Origin: Alphaproteobacteria bacterium
GTDB taxonomy: Bacteria; Pseudomonadota; Alphaproteobacteria; UBA3830
NCBI GenBank assembly: GCA_017476405.1
Contig: JAFUZX010000101.1
Coordinates: forward strand, 11,840-75,839
Reading direction: 5' to 3'
DNA: 64,000 nucleotides
The notes below the pieces were generated by a model. That model had not been told where the DNA came from and made no database searches. It saw only the letters and a program-made list of their open reading frames with translations. Of the stretch, positions 53,581 to 58,960 are shown one piece after another. Every line of letters starts with the position of its first letter. The stretch's first letter is position 1. A program made the translations under genes and the position numbers.

Positions 53581-56427
53581 TTACAGAACATTTTTAGCTT
53601 TTTCATAATTTGCCCAAGTTTTGAGTTCGTTTGCGATTGTATTCAATGTTGATTTTAGGGTACTTTCTGAGGAGACAAAATACGTTTTTCCGCCTGACAG
53701 AGTCGCACAATTGTCGATATTGCTGTAATCCGATGTATCATATGTTACTGATCTGCTATATATCGGAAAATGAGTTGAAGATGTCTGCCGTCTGTATTTG
53801 ATTACATAAATACGCACGTCACTTCCGTATGTAGTTCTCAATTTCGTGCATGCGGCCGTTGTCAAATTTTTTACACCTGCTGTCGGAGTATCCGAACTTC
53901 CCTGATATCCATTTGCGGTTAAAACTCGATTTTTCGCTAAAGAAAAGCTCGTACTCCACACAGCCGCAATATTGTTATAGGATGATGAATATGGCTTCAA
54001 CAACGTATATTTATTACTCGAACTACGTGTCAATGGCGAGAAAAGCCTTATACATCCTGTAAGATAGGTACTAGAATCAGCAACACTATAATCCGGCATT
54101 GTAATGTTACCAAACATCTTAGAATTTGCATTGAAAACGTGACTGATATCCGAAGCATATCCCCCTGAATTATACAATGTCGGATAAAAACTGCTGGTAT
54201 TCATTGTACGATATCCTGTACTTGTGCTGTAATTGCCATAACTTCCGGAATACAAACTAATATCTGTCGGTAAGGAGATCGTTACATTTCTCCAATTAAT
54301 CGTCCTTGCATTTGAAAAAGATGGCGTATAATTTACTGTTGGTTCAGCTGAAGTAAGTTTTACGTTCAGAAGCACGATATTACTTGCCGAAAGCTCGATT
54401 TCATATAGGTTGTTGCTGCTATTGTATGTTAAGTCTGACGCACTGATATTTTTCGTATATTTGCTTCCTCGATATGCCGTTGTTCCGGCGAAAGTTCCGC
54501 TACTGACTGTCGGAGAGCAGGTAAACTCGACAGTCATATCCCCCCTGTAAGGTGTCTGCAGTTTTCCGCTTCCAGATGAAACAATATATAGCCCCCAACC
54601 AGCGTTTGTCGTGTAATTTCTGCTTCCGTAAAAGGTTGAGGATATATACCCTCGCTGCGAGTATGGACTAGTCGTAAAATCAATGAGATCATAGCAATAA
54701 ACTGACGGCGTGTCGTACAATGTTGCCGCAAATGTGCCCGAATGGCTGCTGCTGGTGAGCCCTGACTGCGTCTGATAGCGATAATATGGCGAAGAATAGC
54801 TTAAACTTGATGAAGAAATTTTGTAAATTGAACTCCCAAGCCCATAAATAAGATCCCGATGTTTTGAATTTCTTATGTAGGCACGGTAACGAGTCCGGTA
54901 TTGTGTACAGCTGTAAGAATTGCAGCTGTATGGATTACAACTATAACTACGTGATTTTGTGCACGAATAAGTATAAGTTTCCGTATTAGAACAAACACTT
55001 GAAGTACTCATTATATCCATTCTATTAGGTTTGCCTCCTGAAACGTAATCTAATGTTATTGTTTCATATCCACGGCCCCCTAAACAGGAAGAACCTGATC
55101 CTGATTGCCATCCTGACATTTCAGAAGCATTTATATAAAGCCAGCCTGCTCCTGATTTTGTGTGTTGTTTACTTCCTAATTTTATAGTTCCTCCACTTGT
55201 TGGAAAGTAAAAATCTAATCTGCATCTTGTAGGGACATCAACCCAATTACCCGATCCGCGCGTAGTTATAGCATAATAAACACCGTTCGTAAAAGCTTTA
55301 CCAAACTCAAAATTATATATATAGTAATTCGTTGATCCGCATGCATAATATCCACCAGTATTCCTAGTCCCTGTACACGTACCAGTATAATTCTCATAGC
55401 ACGTCTGATAGCATGTGCTGTAGCATGTGCCTGTATATGACTCGCTGTAGCTTTCCGTTGTCCAAGAGAGATATGATCCCGAACTTGAACCTGTTATATC
55501 CAAATTGTTGTAATATAAAGTGCTTTTATCTATGCTCGACATTACATTGCTTATTTCCGCTGAAACCAATTTAAGATTTGTTATATCAAACTCTACATAG
55601 TAATTACCATTCGAATCAGTTGAGGTAATTTTAGATGGATCTATAATTATTGACGTTCTTTCATCTATATAGTGCGGACTAGCATCAGATAAAACATTTC
55701 TAAATGTAAGTATACTCTGTGTCGGAAGAACTTCTGAGGTGTAAATTGCTCCTGAATTTCCAACACATATGAACATATCTTTTGGAGCATGATATAATAT
55801 ATGATTTGTTGTATACTTGTTTGTACTAAGGCTTAAGGTTTTTTCCCAATTTACCAAATCGGTACTAAGATAAAAATCTGTACTGTTCCCCCATTGTACT
55901 ATATATCTTCCACTTCCATATGTTAAAGCAGCTCCATTTAAATTGGTACTTGTATCAACATATTGTGAAGTCCAAGTACTTCCATTGTTTGTACTTGTAA
56001 GAATCCTTTTATAATCCCCCAAAACTACGAATTTATCTCCTGTATATATGCTATGAAGAAGCCAATTACCATTACCAGTTGATGAAATTCCTCCTGGACT
56101 ACTTATCGTACTCCAACTTGTACCATTTGAACTTCGAATAATAAGAGCACCTATTCCAACCGCAATAAAATATCCGTTAGCATATGATATACTAACCAAT
56201 GGATATGAAAAATTACTCTGAACTGTACTCCAAGAAGTTCCATAAGTACTTCTTATAATAACTCCATTACCTGAACTAGCAGATGTTGTAGTACCTCCAA
56301 CCGCCCAAAATTGCCCATTAACAAAAACCAACCGTCTAAGACTACCTGTACAAGGTGTGCTATATCTTGACCAATTTGTTAAATTAGAACTTACAAGTAC
56401 GCCTTCGTTACCAATAACAGTAGCCAC
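53581..56427 (-). CDS. C-terminal part of a giant surface protein: BNR/Asp-box-like beta-propeller blades, then a Ser/Thr/Tyr/Asn-rich region with Cys-Tyr micro-repeats
   Basis: ORF track, 948 aa with a GTG start. It has repeated blades such as RSTYGTSWSTV, RSSNGTSWSTI, TSTNNGSTWTSQ and LSTDLVNWEKT. The frame stays open upstream to the TGA at 56536-56538. Confidence 0.6.
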   Translation of the reverse strand: MATVIGNEGVLVSSNLTNWSRYSTPCTGSLRRLVFVNGQFWAVGGTTTSASSGNGVIIRSTYGTSWSTVQSNFSYPLVSISYANGYFIAVGIGALIIRSSNGTSWSTISSPGGISSTGNGNWLLHSIYTGDKFVVLGDYKRILTSTNNGSTWTSQYVDTSTNLNGAALTYGSGRYIVQWGNSTDFYLSTDLVNWEKTLSLSTNKYTTNHILYHAPKDMFICVGNSGAIYTSEVLPTQSILTFRNVLSDASPHYIDERTSIIIDPSKITSTDSNGNYYVEFDITNLKLVSAEISNVMSSIDKSTLYYNNLDITGSSSGSYLSWTTESYSESYTGTCYSTCYQTCYENYTGTCTGTRNTGGYYACGSTNYYIYNFEFGKAFTNGVYYAITTRGSGNWVDVPTRCRLDFYFPTSGGTIKLGSKQHTKSGAGWLYINASEMSGWQSGSGSSCLGGRGYETITLDYVSGGKPNRMDIMSTSSVCSNTETYTYSCTKSRSYSCNPYSCNSYSCTQYRTRYRAYIRNSKHRDLIYGLGSSIYKISSSSLSYSSPYYRYQTQSGLTSSSHSGTFAATLYDTPSVYCYDLIDFTTSPYSQRGYISSTFYGSRNYTTNAGWGLYIVSSGSGKLQTPYRGDMTVEFTCSPTVSSGTFAGTTAYRGSKYTKNISASDLTYNSSNNLYEIELSASNIVLLNVKLTSAEPTVNYTPSFSNARTINWRNVTISLPTDISLYSGSYGNYSTSTGYRTMNTSSFYPTLYNSGGYASDISHVFNANSKMFGNITMPDYSVADSSTYLTGCIRLFSPLTRSSSNKYTLLKPYSSSYNNIAAVWSTSFSLAKNRVLTANGYQGSSDTPTAGVKNLTTAACTKLRTTYGSDVRIYVIKYRRQTSSTHFPIYSRSVTYDTSDYSNIDNCATLSGGKTYFVSSESTLKSTLNTIANELKTWANYEKAKNVL

Positions 56428-56535
56428 ATAGTATCCATTTCCATATTCTATATCACTAACGCTATCACCTGACGATATTAACTCTGATGTCCGTACTGTC
56501 CAATTTATTGCATCAGTACTTGAAAGAATTACACC

Positions 56536-58887: not shown

Positions 58888-58960
58888 AAAACATCCGTCA
58901 AAAAATATTTGTAACAATATAAATCGAAATATATCAATATTTATTTAAAATTTGATTAAC

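Follow-up and report, generated by a model that had tools for sequence, protein, structure and literature searches.

The window analysed here, 64,000 nucleotides (nt) of contig JAFUZX010000101.1 from a metagenome-assembled genome (MAG) deposited as "Alphaproteobacteria bacterium", carries on its minus strand a long gene that is interrupted by a single in-frame TGA. This gene follows immediately after ftsW-ftsQ-ftsA-ftsZ, on the same strand, and at NCBI its two halves, two open reading frames (ORFs) called ORF1 and ORF2 in the following, are recorded as the hypothetical proteins MBR1734654.1 (IJ730_04305) and MBR1734653.1 (IJ730_04300). The parts of the locus, in the order in which they are transcribed except for those that span others, are:

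53581..58887, minus strand: the whole ancestral gene as reconstructed here, starting with the ATG at 58887 and ending with the TAA at 53581-53583; 1,768 amino acids (aa) if the TGA is read through
58966..58986, minus strand: terminator-like hairpin between ftsZ and the gene; consensus match only
56536..58887, minus strand: ORF1, 783 aa, ending at the TGA (MBR1734654.1)
58744..58803, minus strand: N-terminal hydrophobic helix GYVMIIVACFLPIVLAGITY, preceded by basic residues and predicted helical; putative membrane anchor
56668..58743, minus strand: conserved N-terminal region, about residues 49-740
55702..56622, minus strand: predicted seven-bladed beta-propeller (Ycf48-like, with BNR/Asp-box-like blades), spanning the TGA
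56539..56548, minus strand: Shine-Dalgarno (SD)-like AGGAGGTGAT, 10 nt, directly 5' of the TGA and coding for part of Ala-Gly-Gly-Asp
56536-56538, minus strand: the in-frame TGA, in a predicted turn of blade 1 that links strand B (VFLAGG) to strand C (ILSS)
56428..56535, minus strand: 36 stop-free codons, for predicted strands C and D of blade 1 and strand A of blade 2
53581..56427, minus strand: ORF2 as annotated, 948 aa from a GTG (MBR1734653.1)
54034..55407, minus strand: variable distal region, 46% Ser/Thr/Tyr/Asn, with short Cys/Tyr repeats
53584..54033, minus strand: conserved C-terminal module, ...AACTKLRTTYGSDVRIYVIKYRRQ...NCATLSGGKTYFV...LNTIANELKTWANYEKAKNVL

Counted mechanically, ORF1 begins at a TTG and covers 56536..58917 (793 aa); its real start is likely the ATG at 58887, and the product counted from there, 783 aa long, is also the one called by NCBI and ENA. 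The hairpin upstream suggests that the gene is a transcription unit of its own. ORF1 and ORF2 share one minus-strand frame and are divided by one stop codon only; past the TGA this frame stays open for 984 codons, up to the TAA at 53581-53583, the chance of which is about 1e-32, and 55 and 76 stops fall in the two remaining frames of that DNA. The residues around the junction read GGD-x-GVILSSTDAINWTVR, where x is the TGA codon. A six-frame scan of the window returned this as the sole case of one stop dividing two long frames of one protein. The original prediction for this DNA had joined the frames 56536..58917 and 53581..56427 across the TGA in the same manner; its translation of the junction is an exact match to the retranslated sequence, the 36 codons between the TGA and the GTG are indeed free of stops, and the measured composition of the distal region agrees with its description as rich in Ser, Thr, Tyr and Asn.

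The TGA is read from assembled sequences. Both products are also encoded in two ENA metagenome assemblies, one of which (L042) is identical to the window; in the other (L043), TGA and flanks are unchanged and 3 of the 17,465 aligned bases differ. A consensus error is unlikely here, since two assemblies share the TGA and the change is a simple substitution away from repeats and homopolymers. It could still be argued that the gene of the organism is intact and that the TGA is a sequencing or assembly artefact, or a minority allele which entered the consensus, for all evidence is assembled sequence, and the ENA assemblies and the NCBI MAG, to judge by their record names, stem from one ruminant metagenome project and may share reads. 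Against this, the TGA and the bases surrounding it are the same in two assemblies that have three differences elsewhere, and a plain substitution outside repeats and homopolymers is the kind of site where consensus errors are rare; an artefact of this sort is considered quite improbable.

All three differences between L043 and the window are non-synonymous single-nucleotide polymorphisms: I184L in FtsZ, H212P in an MFS transporter, and Tyr59 to stop in an RlpA-like protein. The last one, at position 17681 of L043 (window 51207), turns TAT into TAA in an RlpA-like/DPBB lytic-transglycosylase gene (50841-51383, minus strand) that is intact in the window. That every one of the differences between the assemblies changes a protein may indicate that purifying selection is weak in this population.

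A search with the read-through protein gave 30 homologues, mostly of 1,300-2,400 aa, and 41 loci were fetched from reference genomes (L001-L041), 23 of which hold both conserved parts; in 20 of these 23, a single uninterrupted ORF covers the N-terminal region as well as the C-terminal module (tblastn). The layout of the family consists of a basic stretch and a helix, a conserved region of about 700 aa, a very variable middle, and a C-terminal module of about 150 aa. ORF1 of the window encodes the helix and the conserved N-terminal region, which has 36 invariant columns in the family alignment, and the C-terminal module closes ORF2. One homologue with the same local architecture (P0004) is matched in one BLASTP alignment (E 8e-72, 34% identity, 493 columns) that extends from the end of the conserved N-terminal region, past the TGA, and through the whole propeller. 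In a 13-sequence alignment the TGA column is occupied by a sense residue in 12 of 12 homologues, the residue being variable and polar as a turn would predict; none of them has a stop there, and none among those compared is split into two genes with a spacer at this position. As judged by these comparisons and by the predicted structure described below, both ORFs are shown to have been ancestrally one gene of about 1,768 codons. The original prediction of a single gene cut by an in-frame TGA is thereby backed on the comparative as well as the structural side; where it had asked for a sense codon in orthologues, 12 homologues carry a sense residue, and the arrangement it named as contrary, two genes with a real spacer, is seen in no homologue.

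Which codon was lost may be indicated by the bases on either side of the TGA. Its flanks read GGAGGTGAT and TGAGGTGTA and would look like an imperfect 9-nt tandem repeat if the codon had been GGA; because of this near-repeat, the ancestral codon was possibly GGA (Gly). GAA, which had also been proposed as a candidate, cannot become TGA in one step. The homologues at hand are distant: the best full-length match to the read-through protein has 47% identity, and a closer orthologue of the propeller segment, sought in the metagenomes of the Joint Genome Institute (JGI), was at best 31% identical. In a protein database of 5.8 billion clusters, an intact allele at ≥90% identity is absent, and the products of both ORFs are singleton clusters. 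Positional orthologues were not found either, as ftsZ or ftsA is upstream in 0 of the 41 reference-genome loci and P0004 is not syntenic.

The segment around the junction was modelled with AlphaFold2 on the family alignment, with an X in place of the TGA. The model of this read-through segment is all-beta with four-strand periodicity (mean predicted local distance difference test, pLDDT, 78.7; predicted template-modelling score, pTM, 0.69), and DSSP assigned 28-29 strands with the periodicity of blades. The best PDB matches obtained with Foldseek are the Ycf48 chains 5ojr and 2xbg, which align over about 325 columns and reach a template-modelling (TM) score, relative to the target, of about 0.70. 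Blades were assigned from the DSSP strands and the Foldseek matches, not from inter-strand contacts, and closure of the ring is presumed. With this assignment, the repeat unit described in the original prediction corresponds to the blades of a predicted seven-bladed propeller, and the stop, said there to lie within a blade, is placed between strands B and C of blade 1; the model thus shows the TGA inside a blade and not at a domain boundary. The 36-codon stretch is predicted to form ordered beta-strands (block-mean pLDDT 74-93), and the annotated GTG is Val100 of the modelled segment, within strand B of blade 2. When ORF1 was modelled alone, pLDDT was 77.4 and the last 34 residues (750-783) were below 50; according to the model these are orphaned propeller strands. 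A disordered linker joining two halves that are each complete, independent domains had been named as the structure that would speak for two separate genes. Since the TGA lies inside blade 1, the linker is ordered, and the GTG lies inside a strand, both of these outcomes are excluded as far as the predicted structure is concerned.

Motifs resembling the Asp-box are found in the propeller of the window protein (SSTDAINW, SSNGTSW, STNNGSTW, and STDLVNW). In Pfam, it is matched below threshold only, by Sortilin-Vps10 (E 8.5e-4, 18.7 bits versus a cut-off of 33 bits); a homologue (P0025) matches Pfam BNR at 2e-12, and propellers of relatives match BNR, DUF6242, and the F510_1955 glycosylhydrolase model. 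The resemblance to Ycf48 and to the BNR (Asp-box) and sortilin-Vps10 propellers consists in the seven predicted four-stranded blades and in blades which end in S-x-D/N-x-x-x-W. However, sequence identity between Ycf48 and the window propeller is 12-15%, and while Ycf48 is a free-standing assembly factor, the window propeller is one interchangeable cassette in a giant anchored protein.

How the TGA is decoded can be judged from the use of this codon in the rest of the window. TGA ends the RlpA-like gene, which is directly ahead of dapB in the same frame, as well as gpW (24704), the ORF at 35836, and both 997-aa tail genes, all with sensible C-termini; it closes 19 of the 56 long open frames of the window. 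Internal TGA codons are absent from ftsZ, ftsA, ftsQ, ftsW, and the other genes of the window, and TGG stands for Trp throughout. Because TGA terminates genes normally and TGG codes for Trp, a UGA-sense code is excluded for the window, and the earlier argument against TGA as a genome-wide sense codon, drawn from gpW and the ORF at 35836, holds. A lineage-specific sense code for UGA (Trp or Gly), or the insertion of selenocysteine, would agree with the identity of the codon and with the observation that only one of the about 14 chromosomal (non-prophage) genes of the window ends in TGA. But the RlpA-like gene and several prophage genes do terminate with TGA, no Rfam match was found around the TGA at E ≤ 10, and folding of the 76 nt that begin with the TGA showed no advantage over shuffled sequence (z = -1.37, with 21 of 200 shuffles equal or better), so that there is no element like the selenocysteine insertion sequence (SECIS). 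A variable surface loop of a propeller is, moreover, an implausible place for a catalytic selenocysteine, and of all alternatives these two appear the least probable.

Alternatively, the UGA might be read through functionally by a near-cognate tRNA, for example, tRNA-Trp, so that an anchored stub and the full 1,768-aa protein are both made; the SD-like sequence beside the stop might pause ribosomes. The downstream frame is intact over 984 codons, as it should be if translated, among the three stop codons UGA leaks most (PMC7026636), and the sequence directly 5' of the TGA, a perfect 10-nt complement of the anti-SD, has no second copy in the window, with 0.08 expected by chance. This match loses weight, however, as the interrupted gene contains three AGGAGG and seven GGAGG, SD cores which recur there because of Gly-Gly codons, and its position next to the TGA is probably coincidental. 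Further, the base after the TGA is G, whereas C at +4 makes the leaky UGA context (PMC7026636); neither a stimulatory downstream structure nor an Rfam family was detected; no homologue has a stop at the TGA column; and the TGA falls in a variable loop where nothing points to selection for one given residue. Functional read-through is hence unlikely, and slightly more so its elaboration into a leaky-stop switch, in which mostly the 783-aa form and a minority of the 1,768-aa form would be made and the anti-SD match AGGAGGUGAU would modulate termination. If it were true, such a read-through switch would govern a giant variable envelope protein in a protist-associated alphaproteobacterium, and it would explain the flawless 984 codons.

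The programmed +1 frameshift site of prfB, which encodes release factor 2 (RF2), likewise has an SD-like sequence just ahead of an in-frame UGA in the coding region. A prfB-like reading was ruled out for the window, in which coding goes on in the 0 frame past the TGA and stops follow within a few codons in both the +1 frame (a TAA after three codons) and the -1 frame. The two sites differ, in addition, in that the P-site codon in the window is GAU, there being no slippery CUU-type codon, and in that the arrangement of SD and UGA is not conserved in the homologues.

A functional split, in which two polypeptides cooperate and the second is made by termination-reinitiation or from its own start, would agree with the SD-like AGGAGGTGAT and a second sequence, GAGGTG, just upstream of the downstream frame, and gene callers do annotate a 948-aa product from the GTG at 56427. 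Yet, within the 36 codons after the TGA there is no in-frame ATG, GTG, or TTG ahead of that GTG; the near-cognate starts in frame are one ATT and three ATA only, and the nearest candidate is the ATT, 13 nt from the AGGAGG. The GTG itself is predicted to be inside strand B of blade 2, and a product starting with it would have neither blade 1 nor part of blade 2; it would also have no signal sequence or anchor and so could not reach the compartment of the anchored part. With no homologue being organised as two genes at this point, a working split is given a very small chance. An internal promoter for ORF2 was sought as well. There is one 9/12 sigma-70-like match at 56502-56475, which was not taken as evidence; 30 such matches were found versus 21 expected from shuffling.

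From among a recent nonsense mutation, a functional split, and read-through or recoding, which the original prediction had left side by side, the first is favoured: with a probability of about 0.75, a recent nonsense mutation has truncated one copy of a multi-copy, fast-evolving gene for a giant envelope protein, and what is seen in the window is most likely a young pseudogene or a truncated allele. In the ancestral protein, the anchor helix would have been followed by the conserved region of about 700 aa, the seven-bladed propeller, a Ser/Thr/Tyr-rich stretch, and the C-terminal module of about 150 aa. A point substitution would then have turned a sense codon in the variable B-C turn of blade 1 into TGA. 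Ribosomes would stop at this codon and release a 783-aa stub made up of the anchor, the conserved N-terminal region, and two propeller strands left without partners; the larger part of the propeller, the variable region, and the C-terminal module, which is common to all intact members, would be lost. The 984 downstream codons would remain untranslated, apart from background read-through of UGA, and would still be open because the mutation, as is proposed, is young. Both the recency of the mutation and the loss of function are presumptions of this reading.

The gene resembles the young nonsense pseudogenes of host-associated or reduced genomes in having one premature stop in an otherwise intact long ORF while its homologues are uninterrupted. 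Broken copies elsewhere in the family, a nonsense polymorphism in a neighbouring gene, and a low-GC lineage related to the Holosporaceae are further points of likeness. It differs from them in that there is no secondary decay, in that inactivation is presumed, and in that the annotation gives two hypothetical proteins.

Several observations weigh against a recent nonsense mutation. The 984 intact codons equally fit selection on a read-through or reinitiation product, and their freedom from secondary decay is compatible only with a very recent event. The 783-aa stub retains the anchor and the conserved N-terminal region, and loss of function is an assumption. AGGAGGTGAT, abutting the TGA, could in principle affect termination or restart. 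No close orthologue is available, the best having 57-63% identity and covering the N-terminal region only. Finally, the two assemblies that reproduce the TGA belong to one project, perhaps to the same or related samples, and may not be fully independent of each other.

If the gene is disrupted in the way proposed, the entries MBR1734654.1 and MBR1734653.1, now two hypothetical proteins, ought to be merged in the annotation into one disrupted gene. The TGA itself changes little, being another young nonsense allele in a metagenome-assembled genome; of more lasting interest is the family of giant anchored proteins (1,300-2,400 aa) in which conserved ends bracket interchangeable cassettes. This family is small and uncharacterised: an exhaustive HMMER search found only 182 relatives among 1.84 billion representative proteins, and for the conserved N-terminal region and the C-terminal module there is no relative in Pfam, NCBIfam, or PDB. 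The cassettes between the conserved ends comprise propellers, Cys/Tyr-rich repeats, and a recurring module, 'TFxIxPSxI...YY..F...LISAEITN'. In minimal members, such as those encoded by the 660-680-aa genes of L030 and L037, the C-terminal module comes straight after the N-terminal region. In the window protein, a 12-nt tandem repeat at 55392-55435 (minus-strand coding) lies within a Tyr/Cys/Thr-rich stretch (YTGTCYSTCYQTCYENYTGTCTGT); longer Cys/Tyr or 'TRTVPQTC' repeats occur at comparable positions in four homologues (P0013, P0014, P0022, and P0023). The genes next to the relatives vary and include rpsB-tsf, rpsF-rpsR, and others.

The relatives are confined to uncultured Alphaproteobacteria and Holosporaceae from ruminant gut and termite gut, and the host of the window is an uncultured rumen alphaproteobacterium related to Holosporaceae; the GC content of the window DNA is 34-43%. 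A preprint on rumen ciliate symbionts describes protozoa-associated rumen bacteria with reduced, low-GC genomes, the lineage considered here not being treated specifically (10.1101/2025.07.29.667580). Several genomes carry two or three paralogues, and the MAG of the window encodes at least one more, P0002 (IJ730_03295), a redundancy which could relax selection on the interrupted copy. Together with the nonsense polymorphism in the RlpA-like gene, this redundancy fits weak purifying selection in a host-associated lineage.

Broken copies are found elsewhere in the family. Two of the fetched loci (L006 and L034) are frameshifted and a third (L001) is also disrupted. The locus of another member, P0020 (L048/L049, 5100-9904), has suffered two frameshifts which leave three ORFs of 295, 1,071, and 233 aa, and this broken state is identical in seven contigs from several samples. 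The P0020 locus belongs to another rumen alphaproteobacterium, in which it adjoins a contact-dependent inhibition (CDI) toxin/immunity pair. The pattern of many copies and repeated breakage is typical of fast-turnover proteins of the surface or of host interaction.

The N-terminus had been likened in the original prediction to the helix of TadE/TadG pilus-assembly proteins, a likeness that the searches back weakly at best. A helix is predicted, and the window protein shares with TadG-like proteins, which combine the PF13400 helix with a von Willebrand factor A (vWA) domain, a basic stretch, a hydrophobic helix Gly-Tyr-Val...Pro-Ile-Val-Leu, and a subsequent ...EAALxVA... motif. A distant family member (P0156) matches the Pfam Tad profile over its full length, though below threshold (E 0.0064, 17.2 bits versus a cut-off of 22.3 bits), and has the motifs RGYV..I....F.P... 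and ...R(D/E)AALE.A.N in common with the window protein. In contrast to TadG-like proteins, the window N-terminus is not matched by PF13400 even at E ≤ 5, nor is any of 27 family members; no vWA domain was found, and there are no tad, cpa, or flp genes near any copy in the loci examined. By its sequence, the helix is possibly a distant kin of the Tad helix. That the conserved N-terminal region and the C-terminal module might together be a degenerate vWA fold split by insertions was also considered and rejected, as no significant vWA relative was found in Pfam, in NCBIfam, in a profile search of PDB, or with Foldseek, where the best hit of the ORF1 model has an E value of 0.11 and a von Willebrand factor (vWF) domain appears at rank 43 (E 2.8). 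The N-terminal helix presumably is an inner-membrane anchor, and the conserved ends would then be a constant scaffold which displays variable cassettes toward host or environment; for the protein as a whole, a role in the envelope or at the surface is likewise presumed.

The interrupted gene lies outside a prophage which extends over about 6-46 kb and has beside it a tRNA-Met gene, the only tRNA gene in the window. The prophage is of the tailed type, with genes for a tape measure protein (8118-10301), a large terminase (33960-35867), and a primase (42817-45489); its GC content is about 40-43%, that of the flanking chromosome about 34-36%. It is adjoined by the tRNA-Met gene at 46133-46209; attachment-site repeats flanking the prophage were searched for and none was convincing. 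Two tandem prophage ORFs on the minus strand (12624-15617 and 15941-18934), 997 aa each, are paralogous (31% identity, E 2e-137) and match tail/virion structural protein families, with a 116-aa ORF in between. Just outside the prophage, a minus-strand ORF at 3093-5474, which has no match in PHROG, has the same length (793 aa) as the mechanically counted ORF1, a coincidence by all appearances. At the very start of the window lies a 207-nt direct repeat, the two copies of which (33-239 and 327-533) are 91% identical and begin 294 nt apart.

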